The notes beneath the pieces are model-generated. The model searched no databases. It was not told the origin of the DNA and saw only the letters and a list, made by a program, of their open reading frames with translations. Both the position numbers and the translations under genes were made by a program. Shown here in pieces: positions 1,416-10,101 of a stretch of DNA of 64,000 nucleotides. The stretch is from the NCBI GenBank assembly GCA_002441095.1, contig DJVG01000043.1, positions 2,254 to 66,253 on the forward strand, given 5' to 3'. Within the stretch, counting starts at the first letter, position 1. Each line of letters opens with the position of its first letter. This DNA is from Elusimicrobia bacterium UBA6262. GTDB lineage: Bacteria; CAYTYR01; UBA6262.

Positions 1416-1781
1416 TTATGATAAATATTTCTTCACTTCTGCCAGCAGGACTTCAGGCCGGAACGGTTTAATTACATAACTATTGGCCTTGGCTTTTTTA
1501 GCTTCGATCATAGCTTCCTTCTGGCTTTTCGCGCTCAATATTATTATCGGGATCTGACCGAGAGACGGATCATTTTTTATGCGGATACAAACCTGCAGAC
1601 CGTCTATTTTTGGCATCATTATATCCAGGATCAGCAAATCCGGCTTTTCCATGGCGGCCTTGGCTAAAGCTTCTTCCCCGTCAGCCGCGGTCATTACTTC
1701 ATAGCCACTGGCTTCTAAGCGCGATTTCACCAGCATTAGTAATTTTGGCTCATCATCAACCAATAATATTTTATTCCCCAC
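1416..1781 (-). CDS. single-domain response regulator (CheY-like receiver)
   Basis: ILLVDDEP...LLILDIMMP...ILSAK receiver motifs; the track ORF extends to 1904 but overlaps the upstream RR; GTG at 1779-1781 preceded by GGGAG gives a non-overlapping start (VGNKILLVDDE). Confidence 0.7.
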   Translation of the reverse strand: MGNKILLVDDEPKLLMLVKSRLEASGYEVMTAADGEEALAKAAMEKPDLLILDIMMPKIDGLQVCIRIKNDPSLGQIPIIILSAKSQKEAMIEAKKAKANSYVIKPFRPEVLLAEVKKYLS

Positions 1782-1804: not shown

Positions 1805-2188
1805 CTATAGTTCGTTCTTCTTGCTTAGTTCTTTGACCATGCCCAGCAGTACTTCCGGTGAAAAAGGCTTCATGATCACATAATCCACCCCTAAAGACCG
1901 GCATTGTTCTTCCAGTTCCCGGACATTAGACGCAGTGAAAATAATGATCGGGATCTTGGCAAATTCAGGATCTGCTTTTAATTGTTTGGCTACTTCATAC
2001 CCATTGAGATCAGGCATGACAATATCCAACAGGATCAGGTCAGGCTTTTCCTCTTTTACCTTTTCCAGGGCCTGTACACCGCCATAAGCAGTGGCTACGC
2101 TGAAACCATTGGCTTCCAGCCTGGATTTTAAGAGGATCCGCACATGAGGTTCGTCATCCACTACCAGTATTTTTTTATTAGTGCTCAT
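1805..2188 (-). CDS. single-domain response regulator (CheY-like receiver)
   Basis: MSTNKKILVVDDEPHVR...DLILLDIVMP...FTAS...KP receiver signature; 4-nt ATGA overlap with upstream kinase gene. Confidence 0.85.
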   Translation of the reverse strand: MSTNKKILVVDDEPHVRILLKSRLEANGFSVATAYGGVQALEKVKEEKPDLILLDIVMPDLNGYEVAKQLKADPEFAKIPIIIFTASNVRELEEQCRSLGVDYVIMKPFSPEVLLGMVKELSKKNEL

Positions 2189-5100
2189 TTTGCCTCCTCT
2201 AATTTGCTCTTGGCCAACCGCAGCAGTTCTTCAGACTCATGGCCATCTTCAGGATATATGGCTATCGCCTGCGACAGGCTATCAACGGGAACTTGTTTTT
2301 TCCGGCAGTTCTCGATAATGCGCTGGCACAGGGAATTAGCTCCTGGCCGGGCAGACCTGACCAGGACGACAAGCAAGGTGCGCTCTTCAAACCGCACTAC
2401 CATGTCGTCTGCTCTCCTGACACTATATCTGGCTGCTGCTTCGACCCCATCAAGTATAGACATGGCCTGCAGAGCACCCTGGACCGGCTTGATCAAGATC
2501 AAAGCCAGGGACTCATACTCTTTCTTAGCTTTATCCAGCTGGTCCCTTAAGAGCTCATGGAAAACCGCATCAGCTGATAATTTCGGCAGGGTAAAAATAA
2601 ATTTACTGCCTTTTTCCAGTTCGCTCTCCACGCGGATAGTGCCGCCATGCATTTCCACCAGGCTCTTGCTGATCGACAAGCCCAGGCCTGTCCCGCGATA
2701 GCCCGGCCCTGCTGTCCGGTTGATCTGTTCGAACCGGTCAAATATTTTATGGAAGTTTTCAGCAGCGATCCCCCGGCCATGGTCCTCCACTGTTATTTCG
2801 ATCTCCGGGCCTTTGTCTACCAGGTAAACTTCCACTTTCCCTTTATCCTGCGAGAACTTGATAGCATTATCTATTAAATTACTGAGCACCTGTTTTATCC
2901 GGTCCTCATCAAGAAACAAAGAAAAGCCAGGCAGGCCCAGATGCATTTCCAAGGTGATCTGACGCTCCCGGCCCCTTATTTCCAGGTTGTTAACCACCGA
3001 CCTGATCACCGGTACTATATCATGTTCTGTCTTATTCAAAGTAACCTTGCCTGCCTCGATCTTGGAGACATCCAGCAGATCATTAATGATCCGGGTCAGG
3101 CGGTCAATTTCTTCCGTGGCAATATGCAGGAATTCTTTTTGGTCCGGGTTGAGCTCGCCTTTGATGCCTTCCAGGACCTGGGAAATAGATTCACGGATAC
3201 AGGTGATCGGGGTCCTCAATTCATGCGAAACAGTGGAAATAAATTCGCTTTTCAACCGTGCCGCTTCTTTCTCCCTGGTCACATCCCGGAAAGCCAGGGC
3301 CAATCCGATCATCTCATTCTCTGCCTTAAAAACAGGGGCAATATCAAAATGCAGGATCCGGCTGGGATTCTCACCTAATTTCACTTCTTTTTTGACAACC
3401 TTGCTTTTTTCCCATGATTCCACCAGGCTCAAGTCCAGCCCTACGCTAGTCAACATTTCCAGCACTTTGGCGTAATCTTTCTCATCCTTCTGGTATCCCA
3501 GCAAGTGCAGAGCCATATCATTGCTTACTGCGACCTGGCCGTTTTTATCCAGCATGATCACGCCTTCGTTCAACGATTCAACAAGAACCGAGATCTTTTC
3601 ATTCCACTCCTGGAGTTTGCCCTGCATGACTTGCATTTCCTGCCTGTTTTCCTCAAAATCTTCCAGCAAAGAAAGCATTACTTCCCTTGATTCTTTGGCT
3701 TCCTGCAACGCCTGCTCCAGATTCCTGGTTCTTTCCCGGATCTTATCTTCCAGAGTTACGCTGTAATGCTCCAGTGCATTCTTGGAATTATTAAGTTCTT
3801 CGATCATCTGCAGGTTTTCCCGCAAATCAGTCCCCACCAGGATCATGCCGTCAATTTCATTTTTCTTGTCCCGGACCATAGTGCAGGAAAGGCTGACCGG
3901 GATAGGGACCAGGGTCTTGGTGCGGTATTTCACGACCACATTACGGGTCGGATGCTTCTTAGTTTTAGCTATCAGATCAGCCAGTATCTCAACGCTATCC
4001 CCTTCCTGGAATAAAATTTCTACACTCTTATTATGGAGCTCTTCCCAGGTATAGCCAAGCAAGTTTAGCGTCACCTTGTTTACTTCCCGGATGGTCCCGT
4101 CATTATGCAATACCACTAATGAATCGCTCATACTGTTAATAATGTTCTCAAAAAATAGTTTCCGGTCAGTGATCTCCTGGTACGCAGTTTTCAGATCCGT
4201 GATCATCCAGTTAAAAGACTGGGCCAACTGTTCTATCTCATCACCAGTTTTGATATTAGACCGGACATTCAAGTCTCCGGTAGATACTTTTTGCATCGCT
4301 TTCTGCAATGAGGAAACGGAATCCACGATCCGCCGGCTGAAAAATATATTAAAAGGTATCAGGATCAGTAATAAGGCCGCAGCCAGGGCAAACTGCCGGG
4401 CGAACATCTGCCTGATCGGGGCAAAAGCTACTGCCGTTTCCTGGGATAGACAAACTATCCATTGCAGATCATTGTCCTGCAATATCTCATTTTTAACTAC
4501 GGCAACGGTAATGATTGCGCTATGATTATTAATATCCGAACCAATGATCCAGGGATTTTTACCTGAGACGATCAGCTCTTTTATATCCTGGCTGAATTTC
4601 AGGCCGGGCAGCTGCCTATGCAAATCCCTGATCAGGATATTGCCATCCTGGTCAGTCAAGACGGCAGTGCTCCCGGGGATATTGTTGAGCATTTCCATTT
4701 CTTCTAATTCATTCTTTATATTATACACTCCCTTGAGCACCCCGATAACATTATCAGCGGGCCCCACAATAGGAATGCAAAGCGGGATGGACCAGGCCTG
4801 GCTTGATTCATCAAATTCAATTTGACCTATATAAGGTTTCTCTTTGGTATAACTAATAGCTTTTTGCCACCATGTTTCATCAGCCTGGTAAAAGTCTGTT
4901 GTTTTTCCAGAGGCAGCCACCAATCCACCAAAGCGGTCGCTGATAAAAACCTCACCGATTTTTCCCATAATAGTATCATATCTTCGCAATTGGGCGGCGG
5001 CAGGAATATCTGTGTATTTTTTAACTAGCGGGGATTCCTGAGTAGCTGCCCGCCATTGCTGGTCCATGGTATCGAAATAGGCCTGCCGATCCGGGATAGT

Positions 5101-5364
5101 GCCGTACGAGGTATTAGCCTGCTGCAGCAAGGCTATAAAATTGGAGTTCTGGGCAACTTCTGTTAATATTGCTACTTCTTCCTTGATCTTCTTGGCTAGA
5201 TTACTGGCAATGACCTGTGCCCGGCCCTGTAAATTTTCAGTAATAGTTTGCTTACGGATAGTAGAAATAGAGTAATAGCTATAAAGACTGACGCCGACCA
5301 GGACCAGGCAAGTCAGAATTAAATTATTTACCAGTATTTTTTCCCTGAGACTGATCATTCTCAT
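2185..5364 (-). CDS. sensor histidine kinase with N-terminal TM + periplasmic Cache-like region, HAMP, PAS, HisKA (SHELRTPI) and HATPase_c (GTGLGLSISK) plus ~150-aa uncharacterised C-terminal domain
   Basis: 1059 aa; H-box FISTVSHELRTPITCI, N/G boxes DNAIKFS, DHGRGI, GTGLGLSI; two TM segments flanking ~280-aa extracytoplasmic region. Confidence 0.85.
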   Translation of the reverse strand: MRMISLREKILVNNLILTCLVLVGVSLYSYYSISTIRKQTITENLQGRAQVIASNLAKKIKEEVAILTEVAQNSNFIALLQQANTSYGTIPDRQAYFDTMDQQWRAATQESPLVKKYTDIPAAAQLRRYDTIMGKIGEVFISDRFGGLVAASGKTTDFYQADETWWQKAISYTKEKPYIGQIEFDESSQAWSIPLCIPIVGPADNVIGVLKGVYNIKNELEEMEMLNNIPGSTAVLTDQDGNILIRDLHRQLPGLKFSQDIKELIVSGKNPWIIGSDINNHSAIITVAVVKNEILQDNDLQWIVCLSQETAVAFAPIRQMFARQFALAAALLLILIPFNIFFSRRIVDSVSSLQKAMQKVSTGDLNVRSNIKTGDEIEQLAQSFNWMITDLKTAYQEITDRKLFFENIINSMSDSLVVLHNDGTIREVNKVTLNLLGYTWEELHNKSVEILFQEGDSVEILADLIAKTKKHPTRNVVVKYRTKTLVPIPVSLSCTMVRDKKNEIDGMILVGTDLRENLQMIEELNNSKNALEHYSVTLEDKIRERTRNLEQALQEAKESREVMLSLLEDFEENRQEMQVMQGKLQEWNEKISVLVESLNEGVIMLDKNGQVAVSNDMALHLLGYQKDEKDYAKVLEMLTSVGLDLSLVESWEKSKVVKKEVKLGENPSRILHFDIAPVFKAENEMIGLALAFRDVTREKEAARLKSEFISTVSHELRTPITCIRESISQVLEGIKGELNPDQKEFLHIATEEIDRLTRIINDLLDVSKIEAGKVTLNKTEHDIVPVIRSVVNNLEIRGRERQITLEMHLGLPGFSLFLDEDRIKQVLSNLIDNAIKFSQDKGKVEVYLVDKGPEIEITVEDHGRGIAAENFHKIFDRFEQINRTAGPGYRGTGLGLSISKSLVEMHGGTIRVESELEKGSKFIFTLPKLSADAVFHELLRDQLDKAKKEYESLALILIKPVQGALQAMSILDGVEAAARYSVRRADDMVVRFEERTLLVVLVRSARPGANSLCQRIIENCRKKQVPVDSLSQAIAIYPEDGHESEELLRLAKSKLEEAK

Positions 5365-6209
5365 ACAGTTTGGGTACCTTTGTTTTTAGCTAATTCCTCT
5401 TTCAGCTTATCAACCTGCTCTTTCAGCTCAATGACCCGTTTTTCCCGGTCCATAGTAACCCTGTGCAATAACTGCATTTCCTCTATTTTCTGGCTCAATT
5501 CTTTCCTGGACTTATCCAACTCCTCAATAATTTTCCCGGTCTTGGCAAACTCCCTGACCGCGCTGATAGTCCCGACAACCCGGCCTTTCTTGTCTTTCAC
5601 TGCCACTATATCAGCCAGCACCTGTCTTCCGGCGGGGTTGTGAAAGGATACTTCATTGATCATCCCCTGTATAAATACCTTTTCAAACTCGTGGGCAAAG
5701 ACCGGCCAGTCATCCAACGAGACGACATTCTTGATATCCTTGTGTAATATATTTTCCTGGTTTAAGCCGGTTTGCTCTAAGATCCGCTGGTTGCAAAACA
5801 AGATCTTCCCTTTAGCATCGGTCCGGATAATTCCTTCGGGTATCGTTTGCAGTAGGACATCAAGATCCTGCCTCTGTTGTTCAAGTTCATCATTAGTTGA
5901 CCGCAACTCCTCGTCTGTCGCCTGTAATTCCTGGTTAGTCGCCTGCAATTCCTGCCTGGCCGCCTCTGCTTTCAGGTGGGTGTTACGCAATTCCCGGATC
6001 AGCTCCTGATAATGCCGGGTGATCAGGCGTTGGAGAATGAGCAGTGAAATAAAAGCAACTAAAGTCACAAAAATAATAGTCACTATATGCGAAAGCCATA
6101 AATTGTCAATAACAAATACTTCAGTTTTTAAAAATTCAAAAACCACGGTTAATATAAATACAATCAGCGTATATGGCAGCACCAGCTGCCTGATCTTATT
6201 ATTGTCCAT
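5361..6209 (-). CDS. membrane-anchored PAS-domain protein with coiled-coil segments (QELQATNQELQATDEELRSTNDELE)
   Basis: 282 aa; two N-terminal TM helices, heptad-like ELQ repeats, PAS-like block, C-terminal TMDREKRVIELKEQVDKLKEEL motif shared with upstream 1300-aa protein. Confidence 0.55.
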   Translation of the reverse strand: MDNNKIRQLVLPYTLIVFILTVVFEFLKTEVFVIDNLWLSHIVTIIFVTLVAFISLLILQRLITRHYQELIRELRNTHLKAEAARQELQATNQELQATDEELRSTNDELEQQRQDLDVLLQTIPEGIIRTDAKGKILFCNQRILEQTGLNQENILHKDIKNVVSLDDWPVFAHEFEKVFIQGMINEVSFHNPAGRQVLADIVAVKDKKGRVVGTISAVREFAKTGKIIEELDKSRKELSQKIEEMQLLHRVTMDREKRVIELKEQVDKLKEELAKNKGTQTV

Positions 6210-9200
6210 GTGCGTTTTGCTCCAGGTCTTTCAGCTTTTTCTTCAGCTCGATGATCCGTTTTTCGCGTTCCATAGTCACCTTGTTGAACCGGTCCAGTTC
6301 ATTTATCCGCTTTTTTAACTCTTCCTCCGCCCGCTTGCGTTCGGTGATATCCTGGTTCACTCCATAAGTATTGACTGTTCTTCCTTGCTGGTCTTTGATA
6401 ATAAAATAACGAACGGAAATATAGCCAACCTCTCCATGAGAGTCAATTATACGGTGCTCTAGCTGGTGGCTAAAATTAGAATCAGTGGCTTCAATGGCTC
6501 GTCGGGTTTCCAAGCTGACCACTTCAGCATCTTCGGGATGAACAAAACGCTTTACATAATCAGCAGATGACATAGTATAGCCGCCAGCCTGCTCGGCAGT
6601 CGTGTGGAAGATAGCGTAAAAAGAATCCGTGAAGGTAAATACATCGTTTACCACATCATATTCCCAGGGTCCCAGGCGCGCCATATACGCAGCATTTAAT
6701 AACTGGGCTTCGCTCACCCGTAACGCTGCCTCAGCCTGTCTGCGCTCAGTAATATCTACGGCAAAGCCGACAATCCCAATGATCTCTCCCTTTTCATTTC
6801 TATAGGGTATTTTATCGGTCTGGACCCATTTCAGCCCTTCTTGCGTCTGCATTGATTCTACGATGTTTAGTCTTGGTTGTCCTGAATCCATCACTGCCTT
6901 ATCATCCTGCCAGTATTTCTCCGCCTCTTCTTTAGGATAAATATCAAACACCGACTTCCCTTCCAGCTGCTCTTTGGTCAAGCCCATACTTTTAGCCATA
7001 GCCTTGTTGACACGGATGAAATTATTATTCTTATCCTTATAAAAGATCATTGCTGGCGTAGAATCCAGGATAGTACTTAGTTCCTGCTGTTGTTGTAGCA
7101 GAGTCTCTTCGTATTTTTTTCGCTCAGTGATATCCTGATTAACGCCATAAGTTTTGATCGTCTTTCCTTGCTGGTCTTTGACAATAAAAAAACGCACCGA
7201 AATATAACCAATTTCCCCATTAGCATCAATTTTACGGTGCTCCAGCTGACGGCTAAAATTAGAATCAGTTGTTTCAATGGCTTTGCGAGTTTCTTCACCG
7301 ACCACCGCTGCATCTTCTGGATGGACAAAACGCTTTACGTAATCTGCCGCCGACATAGTATAGCCGCCGACTTGCTCGGCTGTTGTGTGAAAAACAGTGT
7401 AAAAAGAATCAGTAAAAGTAAAAATATCTTTCACCACATCATATTCCCAGGGTCCCAAGTGCGCAATATTCAAAGCATTGGATAGCTGATCTTCATTCTG
7501 CTGGAGTGCTACTTCGGCTTTTTTACGTTCGGAAATATCGTGGGAAAATACGAACATTTGATCTGAATCCCTGAGAATCGTTACGCTAATCACAATATCG
7601 ATAATAGTTCCGTCTTTGCATTTATGTTTAGTTTCAAAGCGGTCACTGCCATTTTCCATAATTTTATGAATACGGGCTTGTATCTCTGCTGGTTTCTCGT
7701 TTACTTCCAAGTCAGCGATTTTCATTTTTTGCAATTCTACCCGGCTATAACCGATCATTTTACAATAAGAATCATTTACTTCAATGATATTGCCTTGCAT
7801 ATCCGTCAGCCAGAAACCGTCTATAGAGGTCTCAATTATAGCTTTATATTTCTGTTCCTGTTTCTGGCATTCGGTAATATCAGTAACCACCCCGATCAGT
7901 CCGGCGATTGTGCCGTCAGGATTATTATAAGTGGCTTTATTAAAGATGACTAAACGACGGGTACCGTCTGCCTGTTGAATACTGGATTCATAGGCTTGGG
8001 TTCCGGGATGGCTTAGTAATTCCTCGTCTTTCTGGTGGTAGACATCAGCTAGATCCTTAGGCGCGAGTTCATAGACAGATTTACCAATGATTTTTTCCTT
8101 TGCTCTTCCCAAGAAACGCTCAAAAGCCTGGTTACACCCTTGATAGATCCCTTGCGCGTCTTTGTAGAATACCGGATTAGGAATAGCTTCAAGCAATTGC
8201 TGGATAAATGCCAATTGGTTTGTCATTGCGGTTTTGGCTTTTTCTATATCAGTGACATCTTCTACGATACCGATAAAACCGGTAGGCTGGTTTTGGGCAG
8301 AGACTATCATTTTGATCTGCGTATGCACCCAACGAGTCTCATTCTGCTTATTGAGGATCCTAAACTTCAAGGATTCTTCTTTGCCTTGGGGCAGCGGTCC
8401 GGTAATGATATTCAAGGCCTCTTCCTGCTCTTCAGGATGGATCAGCTTTCTCCAGCCTTGTCCCAGACATTCATCAAAAGTCATTCCGGAAAATGAAATA
8501 AGTTTTTTATTTACATAAACAACTTCCCCTTGCATATTTAAAAAGAAAATGCCAACTGGAGCCAGATCACTTAAATTACGGAATTTTGCTTCACTCTCGT
8601 GCAAGACATTTTCTATTTTTTTGCGCTCGGTGATATCCCGGGCAAAACTTAAAATAAATTTTTCCCCGGCAAGCTCAACTATGCTGCTATTGATCTCTAC
8701 CGGGATAAGCTGCCCTTCCTTGGTCATATGTTCTGATTCAAAAAGGGCCTTGCCTTCTTTTAAGATTTTAGCCATTCTTTCCGGTACTAAAGCCGCATTT
8801 TGAGGAGAATCTATTTTTGTTGGTCCCAAGGTTAAAAGTTCGGTGCGGGTATAATGCAGCATTTGGCAAGCGCTCTGGTTAATATCTATAAACTGGGGAT
8901 TAACAGGATCCAAAGTAAGGAGATATATGGCTTCAGATGAACCTTCGATCAGGGAGCGGGATTTCTGCTCTGACTGCACCAGCCTCTGCCGCGCTTTTTC
9001 TTCCTCTGTCACATCACGGAAAATAGCCGCGACTTTATCGCCTACCGGATAAATAACATTATGCATATACTGGTCGTGTTGCGCGTCCTGGTAATGAACC
9101 AGCGGAATGATCTTTGACTCCCCTGACTGGGAACATTCCACGATAGCTTTATAGACCTCGGTTTTTTCCATTGCCGGGAAAAACTTTTTAATATCCTGGC

Positions 9201-10101
9201 CCAGCACCTCTTGCCGTAAAAGATTGTACATTTTCTCAGCCGCCCGGTTCCAATCGGCGACGATCATTTCTTGGCCTTCATCTTTTACTTCATAGAGGGC
9301 GAACCCGTCAGTCATGGCATCAAAAACAGACCGGTATTGCTCCTCATAATCAACCAACTCCTGATTAGCTGATTTCAGGGACAGCCAGACGCCCAGGGTA
9401 CTGGCCACAGCTTCCAATATATTTTGTTCATCCGGCTGCTTAAATGGTTTGTTTTCAGTATAATACATGGTCAGTTCGCCGGCTTCATGCCCGTTGATAT
9501 ATAATGGTGCAGTCAAGCCATATTCAAGATCATCGCTATATTTATCCGTGCTGAAAGTTTCATCCTCAATAGCAATGAGCGGGACAGCCAGCTGGGGATA
9601 GGTCATGGCTGCGACCAGCGCTTCCAGGACAAAATGGATAGTATACTCTATGGAGTCGTTATCCTGCAGTTTCCTGGTGATCAGGGATAAGCTGTTCAAT
9701 TGGCGCAAATGAGCTTGCTGGAGTTGTTCCTGTTCTTTTTGGCTGGTCAGATCACGGCAGAGGATTAATATTTTAGTCTGGGTTTTATTGGCATCAGCCA
9801 ATAACATCGGGGTCAGGGCTACCGGGAAAATACTGCCATTCTTACGTACATATTCCTGCTCGATATTGGGGGCGTTATGCTGTACCAGGGCAGCTTCCTG
9901 GATAGCCTGGCTTTCTTGCTGGTGCCATTTAGCCGGCGTCAGGTCACGATGGGTCTTCTGGATTATTTCGTCCAGGGTATATCCCAGCATGGACAGAGCC
10001 GCTGGATTAGCCTGTATGATCCGGCCACGCAGGTCAAGCTCCAGCAGTCCATCATGTATGGTTTCGGAGATAAGTTTATAGATCTCTTTTTCGTCAACCA
10101 T
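6199..10101 (-). CDS. large cytoplasmic multi-PAS/PAC sensor protein (>=8 PAS-like repeats) with no recognisable output domain
   Basis: 1300 aa; repeated PAS/PAC blocks each ending ...DITERKKAE/ DVTEEEKAR/ DITERRQAE; no H-box, GGDEF, EAL or HTH visible; C-terminus coiled-coil TMEREKRIIELKKKLKDLEQ. Confidence 0.7.
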   Translation of the reverse strand: MVDEKEIYKLISETIHDGLLELDLRGRIIQANPAALSMLGYTLDEIIQKTHRDLTPAKWHQQESQAIQEAALVQHNAPNIEQEYVRKNGSIFPVALTPMLLADANKTQTKILILCRDLTSQKEQEQLQQAHLRQLNSLSLITRKLQDNDSIEYTIHFVLEALVAAMTYPQLAVPLIAIEDETFSTDKYSDDLEYGLTAPLYINGHEAGELTMYYTENKPFKQPDEQNILEAVASTLGVWLSLKSANQELVDYEEQYRSVFDAMTDGFALYEVKDEGQEMIVADWNRAAEKMYNLLRQEVLGQDIKKFFPAMEKTEVYKAIVECSQSGESKIIPLVHYQDAQHDQYMHNVIYPVGDKVAAIFRDVTEEEKARQRLVQSEQKSRSLIEGSSEAIYLLTLDPVNPQFIDINQSACQMLHYTRTELLTLGPTKIDSPQNAALVPERMAKILKEGKALFESEHMTKEGQLIPVEINSSIVELAGEKFILSFARDITERKKIENVLHESEAKFRNLSDLAPVGIFFLNMQGEVVYVNKKLISFSGMTFDECLGQGWRKLIHPEEQEEALNIITGPLPQGKEESLKFRILNKQNETRWVHTQIKMIVSAQNQPTGFIGIVEDVTDIEKAKTAMTNQLAFIQQLLEAIPNPVFYKDAQGIYQGCNQAFERFLGRAKEKIIGKSVYELAPKDLADVYHQKDEELLSHPGTQAYESSIQQADGTRRLVIFNKATYNNPDGTIAGLIGVVTDITECQKQEQKYKAIIETSIDGFWLTDMQGNIIEVNDSYCKMIGYSRVELQKMKIADLEVNEKPAEIQARIHKIMENGSDRFETKHKCKDGTIIDIVISVTILRDSDQMFVFSHDISERKKAEVALQQNEDQLSNALNIAHLGPWEYDVVKDIFTFTDSFYTVFHTTAEQVGGYTMSAADYVKRFVHPEDAAVVGEETRKAIETTDSNFSRQLEHRKIDANGEIGYISVRFFIVKDQQGKTIKTYGVNQDITERKKYEETLLQQQQELSTILDSTPAMIFYKDKNNNFIRVNKAMAKSMGLTKEQLEGKSVFDIYPKEEAEKYWQDDKAVMDSGQPRLNIVESMQTQEGLKWVQTDKIPYRNEKGEIIGIVGFAVDITERRQAEAALRVSEAQLLNAAYMARLGPWEYDVVNDVFTFTDSFYAIFHTTAEQAGGYTMSSADYVKRFVHPEDAEVVSLETRRAIEATDSNFSHQLEHRIIDSHGEVGYISVRYFIIKDQQGRTVNTYGVNQDITERKRAEEELKKRINELDRFNKVTMEREKRIIELKKKLKDLEQNAHGQ
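6330..6710. repeat. intragenic PAS-domain repeat copy A' (~85% nt identity to 7120-7490)
   Basis: protein LGPWEYDVVNDVFTFTDSFYAIFHTTAEQAGGYTMSSADYVKRFVHPEDAEVV... vs ...LGPWEYDVVKDIFTFTDSFYTVFHTTAEQVGGYTMSAADYVKRFVHPEDAAVV...; DNA aligned by eye. Confidence 0.85.
7120..7490. repeat. intragenic PAS-domain repeat copy A (partner of 6330-6710)
   Basis: see 6330-6710; ~790-bp spacing, a different PAS domain between the copies. Confidence 0.85.

Follow-up and report, generated by a model that had tools for sequence, protein, structure and literature searches.

A conserved C-terminal helix of output-less PAS proteins and a second motif in downstream kinases: a candidate docking pair

Introduction

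How does a sensor protein without any output domain pass on its signal? The question is raised by a stretch of 64,000 nucleotides (nt) from Elusimicrobia bacterium UBA6262 (GenBank assembly GCA_002441095.1, contig DJVG01000043.1, positions 2,254 to 66,253; this whole stretch is called the window below, and positions are counted within it). Two adjacent genes on its minus strand encode PAS proteins of 1300 and 282 amino acids (aa) that lack an output domain, and a histidine kinase gene follows them. Proteins made only of PAS, GAF or REC domains are very common in anaerobic bacteria and archaea, and their signalling route is largely unknown. We found that the C-terminal segment shared by the two proteins, which we call the tail, belongs to a family of terminal helices whose genes lie mainly upstream of kinase genes. 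The tail is probably a docking helix that attaches output-less sensors to the helical spine of the kinase whose gene comes next.

Results and Discussion

Two output-less PAS proteins end in the same helix

The larger gene (6199..10101, minus strand) encodes a cytoplasmic protein with 8-9 PAS-type copies, and its translated open reading frame (ORF) had no other Pfam or NCBIfam match. Between its first two PAS domains lie about 120 residues (residues ~130-250; 9352-9711, minus strand) that no Pfam model covers, so the protein may not be strictly PAS-only. The smaller gene (5361..6209, minus strand) encodes a membrane-anchored protein; two predicted N-terminal hydrophobic helices are followed by a long helix, a single PAS domain and the tail. 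A single-sequence model of low confidence (pLDDT 61), to be read for helix layout only, placed its helices at residues 3-33, 37-121 and 215-278. No HisKA, HATPase, GGDEF, EAL or HTH domain was found in either protein with Pfam or NCBIfam.

The large protein terminates in ...FNKVTMEREKRIIELKKKLKDLEQNAHGQ and the small one in ...HRVTMDREKRVIELKEQVDKLKEELAKNKGTQTV, and both contain the terminal motif TM(E/D)REKR(I/V)IELK. A six-frame scan of all 64 kb located this motif at these two C-termini only. Together with the ORFs and the domain searches, the scan confirmed the original prediction that two neighbouring output-less PAS proteins carry a common C-terminal motif. The tail helix covers residues ~1254-1300 of the large protein (core VTMEREKRIIELK; 6202..6342, minus strand) and residues ~234-278 of the small protein (core VTMDREKRVIELK; 5376..5510, minus strand). 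When the window sequences and their near-orthologues were kept out of the profile, which then comprised 162 tails, the tail of the large protein scored 48.2 bits and that of the small protein 44.1 bits, with matches that stop 3 and 4 residues, respectively, short of the end. They represent a divergent 'short' subtype in which E/D replaces G before Arg-Glu and which lacks the LGxxPxY extension. The window also lies on a metagenome contig (ENA ERZ27315056). The operon, including both stop codons, was found again in other assemblies (loci L002, L085 and L086, including GCA_028712895.1). The orthologue of the small protein in GCA_028712895.1 is 74% identical overall, with a tail region visibly more conserved than the remainder, and the small-protein tail is conserved in L085 and L086.

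Several simpler identities of the tail were considered and rejected. The tail profile gave no match at any of the large protein's eight internal PAS-PAS junctions or at the signalling helix (S-helix) of the window kinase, which argues against a generic PAS boundary or S-helix. Tails also lack the ERT signature of S-helices and are terminal, not placed between input and output domains. A genuine S-helix (IRERTRNLEQ) is present in the window kinase, and because an S-helix directly precedes the tail in other proteins (L023, L031, L051), the two are distinct elements. A kinase truncated by a frameshift was likewise discarded: the stop codons are kept in the orthologues, the helix is terminal throughout the family (see below), and truncation is excluded because the gene after the large protein opens with hydrophobic helices. 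Finally, a remnant of HisKA, that is of the dimerisation and phosphotransfer domain (DHp), or a mimic of its H-box found no support, since the tail profile and a HisKA-HATPase core profile, compared with hhalign, gave a probability of 0.1%; no His occurs at the H-box-equivalent position of the tail.

The tail defines a widespread family of terminal helices

With the last PAS domain plus tail as query, PAS proteins ending in the same segment were retrieved. The family is characterized by a C-terminal helix of ~45 residues with the consensus ELERFNxLxVGRELRMIELKKEINxL, or in its longer form (DITERKxAEE)-EL-x2-K-x2-ELERFN-x-L-x-VGRELRMIELKKEIN-x-L-x3-LG-x3-(K/P)Y. A profile made from 14 tail sequences was searched against 1.84 billion cluster representatives, of which 17,976 matched at E <= 1e-3 and 825 at E <= 1e-10; the hosts span more than 15 bacterial and archaeal phyla. 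The last tail copy lay no more than 34 residues from the C-terminus in 150/150 best matches (median 9). A species-level genome scan (one genome each) gave at least 600 matches, 545 of them confirmed, and 80 loci were kept. Their bacterial sources are Planctomycetota, Chloroflexota, Bacteroidota, Verrucomicrobiota, Nitrospirota, Acidobacteriota, Desulfobacterota, Gammaproteobacteria, Caldisericia, Omnitrophota and others, and the archaeal ones include Methanoregula, Methanosarcinales, Heimdallarchaeota and Aenigmatarchaeota. Within these loci the tail ended no more than 36 residues from the ORF end in 93/95 tail ORFs. Both exceptions are kinase fusions: L081, a natural sensor-tail-kinase fusion with the order Tll0287-HAMP-PAS3-tail-PocR-PAS-HisKA-HATPase-REC, and L054, where the tail stands ahead of PAS-PAS-kinase. 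About one fifth of the best matches have two tail copies; behind the internal one come an acidic linker and a PocR-PAS unit, which itself ends in a tail.

The hosts are mainly input-type proteins. A scan of 100 tail proteins matched 35 Pfam families; the 25 most frequent were all input-type, and the remaining ten occurred in at most one protein each. The families found comprise PAS (85 proteins), GAF, PocR (14), REC (10), Cache, CHASE, HAMP, MASE1, solute-binding domains and KaiB. The tail segment itself is covered by no Pfam, NCBIfam or PDB entry, and no description of the motif was found in open-access full text. The 54-aa tail alone gave almost no matches as a homology query, a query of this length being short for the word index, and a further alignment search yielded no more than short fragments. 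Tail-only mini-proteins (ORFs of 50-90 aa) were rejected on the two that were checked: P0266 (L087, 6001-6210) is a frameshift fragment and P0289 (L088, 25-288) a contig-end fragment of longer PAS-tail genes.

AlphaFold2 modelled the last PAS domain and tail of the large protein with a mean pLDDT of 96.7 (56 aligned sequences). In the model the tail is one unbroken 47-residue helix that leaves the last PAS strand (model residues 134-180), with block-mean pLDDT values of 95-98 for most of its length and lower ones at the final residues. Among solved structures, the nearest folds belong to PAS/LOV proteins whose terminal helices are long; these include PpSB1-LOV, SBW25-LOV and MrLOVe, which have N- and C-terminal helices and no effector. 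Column statistics showed a core with regular heptads in the C-terminal half of the tail. A plain long helix with regular heptads, and nearest folds of this kind, would also be expected if the tail were merely a terminal homodimerisation coiled coil, a short-LOV-like extended J-alpha helix that stabilises PAS dimers, the kinase being contacted via other surfaces or not at all. The same column statistics point the other way. Arg-Glu is invariant and Lys nearly invariant, the invariant Arg falls on a predicted core position, and conserved hydrophobics occupy non-core positions in the centre (L-A-V-G-R-E-L-R-M-I). Such a pattern across more than 15 phyla is not expected of a generic helix, nor are the restriction to hosts without output domains and the link, described below, with a particular second motif encoded by the next gene. 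We therefore regard a purely homodimeric role as unlikely. The conservation appears to exceed the needs of a simple two-stranded zipper and points to a surface used beyond simple dimerisation.

Short LOV and PAS proteins (PpSB1-LOV, SBW25-LOV, W619_1, MrLOVe) resemble the tail proteins in their PAS core, N-cap, long C-terminal helix and lack of an output domain. However, they have no sequence relation to the tail, as a profile search of the PDB returned no match, and the LOV signature NCRFL was not seen on reading the window protein translation. We know of no report that the genes next to those of short LOV proteins encode a conserved partner motif.

Tail genes are located upstream of kinase genes

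Gene order was evaluated on our own greedy ORF calls, with crude local profiles for kinase, REC and CheR domains. A same-strand neighbour within 150 nt follows 70/93 tail genes, with many 4-nt overlaps that indicate translational coupling, and precedes 36/79. Among the 64 such downstream neighbours that lack a tail, 25 matched HATPase_c, 21 HisKA, 17 REC and 9 CheR. Kinases were found at position +1 in 27/93 cases versus 5/79 at -1 (p = 1.3e-4), and at +2 in 22/78 versus 6/69 at -2 (p = 3e-3). Within three same-strand genes, a kinase lies downstream in 49/72 evaluable cases and upstream in 13/65. Thus the motif, when sought in other genomes, does co-occur with kinases, and the tail genes sit upstream of them. 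Two or three tail genes are present in 12/80 loci; they are directly consecutive in six (L023, L025, L031, L045, L065, L069), as in the window.

The window operon has the same polarity, and its two PAS genes are translationally coupled. Its minus-strand gene row runs uninterrupted from the 1300-aa protein through the 282-aa protein, the kinase and two receivers to a GH2-like gene. As had been noted from the sequence, both PAS genes overlap the next gene: the junction sequences show 11 shared nt (ATGGACAATAA) between the two PAS genes and a 4-nt ATGA shared by the 282-aa and kinase genes. Pfam also bore out that the operon continues into a 1059-aa histidine kinase and two stand-alone receivers. 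The kinase gene (2185..5364, minus strand; Pfam, NCBIfam) encodes dCache-HAMP-PAS-S-helix/LSLLED-PAS-HisKA-HATPase_c and a weak GGDEF-like end. This end (residues 970-1059; 2185-2455, minus strand) is a partial match below the cut-off (E = 1.2e-4, profile positions 58-155). The first receiver (1805..2188, minus strand) has 127 aa and matches Response_reg in Pfam at E = 3.7e-30. The second (1416..1781, minus strand), also a Response_reg match, has 121 aa in the gene call of the source contig, and its open frame reaches 162 aa.

Downstream kinases carry a second conserved motif

The kinases encoded downstream of tail genes share a second unannotated segment right after the S-helix, ...ERT-x-EL-x2-AN-x2-L-x3-R-x-AALN(M/L)MEDA-x2-A(R/K)..., which we call the partner motif. 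A nine-residue regular expression for RxAALN(M/L)MEDA had 31 matches in the loci against 0.45 expected by shuffling. A profile of the motif core matched 18/93 genes at +1, 9/78 at +2, 4 at +3 and 3 at +4, compared with 0/79 at -1 and a single match over all upstream positions. The motif had no match in Pfam, NCBIfam or PDB, and none was found in the open-access literature.

The association was also examined in the reciprocal direction, by scanning metagenome contigs with a DNA pattern for AALN(M/L)MEDA only. This yielded 118 motif-bearing ORFs, 75 of which have a same-strand tail match within 6 kb upstream; where the upstream sequence was sufficient, the count was 71/98 (72%). The tail gene is directly adjacent in 60 cases, with a median gap of -4 nt, and the partner motif lies at a median position ~210 residues from the protein start. 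Tail proteins are so rare in the database (about 1 representative in 100,000) that chance falls far short of explaining the association. Redundancy does not account for it either, since clustering at 50% identity sorted the upstream tails into 69 clusters. Certain downstream kinases lack a sensor altogether and consist of a short N-terminus, the partner motif, DHp and a catalytic domain (L148, L199). Where an H-box follows directly, its distance from the motif is discrete, at 45, 52, 59 or 70 residues (15 ORFs, loci L107-L206), which fits one continuous helical spine.

In view of gene polarity, the partner helix and the reciprocal search, the proposal that the tail may be a docking module coupling output-less PAS sensors to the kinase has strong comparative support. 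A historical explanation should also be weighed, in which tail and partner motif are scars of repeated fission of long kinases at a favoured linker, or of shared operon descent, and reflect history instead of binding. Fused forms do exist (L081, and the two-copy proteins with internal tail, linker, PocR and PAS), and in L100 (~3000-3300) and L199 (~100-320) the tail ORF and the partner ORF share a reading frame, with one stop and a few codons between them. However, four of the six inspected tail/partner junctions are out of frame, and in fused proteins the tail is not contiguous with the partner motif, as a disordered acidic linker or a whole domain intervenes. Both partners are, moreover, very diverse in architecture and distributed over many phyla, as the number of tail clusters also illustrates, and if the sequences stayed strongly conserved after fission, that alone would imply that a function was kept. 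Fission or common descent as the whole explanation thus seems improbable to us.

Several proteins combine the two elements. In P0111, P0112, P0118, L053 and L081, the order after an internal tail is a linker that is acidic and probably disordered, PocR, a helix resembling the partner motif (...AMSLAEDA...) and then PAS. Partner motif and tail were also found together in single proteins of two arrangements (L099, L101, L117, L129, L194, L201; L094, L116, L135, L147, L153, L161). In one, the partner motif is near the front and the tail at the end, resembling relays; in the other, the tail follows ~30 helical residues after the motif, with no domain between them.

A candidate socket in the window kinase

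In the window, a profile combining S-helix and partner motif (the S-helix+NMMED profile) matched only the kinase, at residues ~534-589 (LEDKIRERTRNLEQALQEAKESREVMLSLLEDFEENRQEMQ; 3598..3765, minus strand), with an ungapped score of 22 bits. This candidate socket is made up of the S-helix with its ERT signature and a divergent partner motif: the partner-like stretch SREVMLSLLEDFEE, with the core VMLSLLEDF (3655-3681, minus strand), directly follows the S-helix. The stretch is the only match of the partner-motif regular expression in the window, where ~0.06 were expected (~1e-6 per residue by shuffling), and the segment is nearly identical in a kinase orthologue of 78% identity.

A mechanism can be proposed on this basis. 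Where an output domain would usually follow, the tail would extend the last PAS strand as a single long helix. Each output-less sensor, the cytoplasmic multi-PAS protein as well as the membrane-anchored single-PAS protein, would plug its tail into the kinase encoded downstream. The docking site may be the segment of the kinase helical spine after the S-helix (ESREVMLSLLEDFEE, between two PAS domains). A hetero-oligomeric helical bundle formed in this way could pass conformational changes of the sensors to the DHp and catalytic core, so that the kinase would integrate its periplasmic dCache input with two further inputs, as a three-input system, and pass the result on to the two receivers. What we infer from the family, its gene order and its partner motif is direct binding, together with the arrangement of the complex and the assignment of tails to sites.

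Several observations weigh against this docking model. A recognisable downstream partner motif is present in only ~29/80 tail loci (about one third); one tail gene (P0006) precedes a kinase that lacks the motif, and another (P0015) has no kinase downstream. Partner motif and tail ~30 residues apart in one protein can both sit in one continuous helix, and their joint presence there is not itself a sign of binding. As to the window, most of the 22 bits of the kinase segment come from the generic S-helix portion, and a core-only profile, which is biased to canonical AALNxMEDA, gave the segment 4 bits. Two tails face a single detected socket. Finally, both motif copies in the window operon are divergent variants, a fact that could reflect private specificity and that weakens the claim for the window itself.

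Two related loci differ from the window in this respect. In L045 (8446-13404) and L065 (6366-11320), one hybrid kinase with two copies of the partner motif (residues ~108 and 287) is encoded after a pair of adjacent tail genes. One tail per socket was rejected as a rule, because this correspondence was seen only in these loci and other multi-tail loci differ.

Beyond single operons, the tail and the RxAALNxMEDA helix may constitute a general plug-and-socket connector pair of bacteria and archaea, an idea we consider a serious possibility at somewhat less than even odds. Sensor-only proteins, relays that have a socket in front and a plug at the rear, and effectors such as kinases and HD-GYP proteins would then join non-covalently in modular multi-input chains, some of them with an additional CheR/CheB methylation layer.

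Link to CheR and CheB

In 11/93 cases the gene right after a tail gene encodes CheR, and the two often overlap by 4 nt; 25 CheR-domain ORFs occur across the 80 loci. The CheR profile matched six tail proteins, and all five of those scanned are fusions of the order CheB-CheR-heptad array-PAS_10-PAS-tail. The NEELQS[TS] heptad array between CheR and PAS_10 in these fusion proteins (L071, L041, L049, L083) fits the chemoreceptor methylation consensus. In the small window protein, three heptad-spaced matches to that consensus, QELQAT/QELQAT/EELRST, lie between membrane anchor and PAS (residues 86-105; 5874..5954, minus strand; regular expression [EQ][EQ]xx[AS][ST] at residues 86, 93 and 100).

These data could be read to mean that the tail is an element of CheR/CheB methylation adaptation, either a tether for the methyltransferase or its substrate, and that the small window protein is methyl-accepting. 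The neighbouring CheR genes, the CheB-CheR-PAS-tail fusions and the [EQ][EQ]xxA[ST] sites that the small protein has in common with them all fit, as does the conserved aromatic peptide xPxYxh at the end of 'long' tails. On the other hand, neither CheR nor CheB was found in the 64-kb window, and most tail loci are without CheR. The tail lacks the methylation consensus, and the window tails lack the aromatic C-terminal extension. Despite its three consensus sites, the small protein has no MCPsignal domain in Pfam, so it was not assigned to the methyl-accepting chemotaxis proteins. For this window, we consider a methylation role of the tail very improbable.

A conserved operon in Chloroflexi, Bacteroidales, Caldisericia and Methanoregula consists of sensor-tail, CheR, 4HB_MCP-HAMP-GAF-HisKA-HATPase-REC-REC and REC-PAS-GAF-HD-GYP, with no MCPsignal domain in it; the loci with a sensor-tail/CheR operon are L006, L011, L014, L019, L034, L044, L064 and L087. 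The recurrence of CheR and CheB outside chemoreceptor arrays hints at methylation-based adaptation in ordinary two-component signalling.

Comparison with known systems

S-helices are reportedly linkers between PAS, GAF or HAMP domains and output domains, as described by Anantharaman, Balaji and Aravind in 2006. Like S-helix and J-alpha, the tail is a ~40-50-residue and probably coiled-coil helix that continues the last PAS strand on the signalling path. However, S-helices join two domains and the tail ends the protein; the S-helix occurs as a separate element, directly before the tail in the proteins named above and directly before the partner motif in kinases. By analogy, the tail resembles a J-alpha helix or S-helix that was released from its place between domains and now has a receptor helix to match it.

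The nearest parallel is offered by the docking domains of modular polyketide synthases and non-ribosomal peptide synthetases, where a short C-terminal helical element pairs with an element near the N-terminus of the next-encoded protein and so orders the polypeptides. Sequence and pathway are unrelated, and here the partner motif is often internal and the pairing is a proposed one. In three-component systems such as LuxP-LuxQ, YycHI-WalK and Sda/KipI-KinA, a separate and often co-encoded protein modulates the kinase. These are individual, unrelated pairs, in contrast to one conserved helix pair that is combined with many architectures in bacteria and archaea.

Split histidine kinases are also known. 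CheA3 and CheA4 of Rhodobacter sphaeroides carry the phospho-acceptor and catalytic domains on separate proteins (PMC3591291). The likeness is that functions of a kinase system are spread over separate polypeptides that need assembly; the difference is that here sensor modules are split from a complete kinase, and the window kinase, which has both HisKA and HATPase_c, does not belong to this class. Accessory sensors and split kinases are thus known kinds, whereas for a standard connector pair across phyla we found no description in the open-access literature, where the split kinase was the only related concept met with.

Implications

If the docking model is true, orphan sensors would gain a testable path to a kinase, and many of them could be assigned to pathways by sequence alone. 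The tail and its partner motif would be two new domain families for annotation. They would also offer short natural connector peptides for the construction of synthetic multi-input two-component systems.

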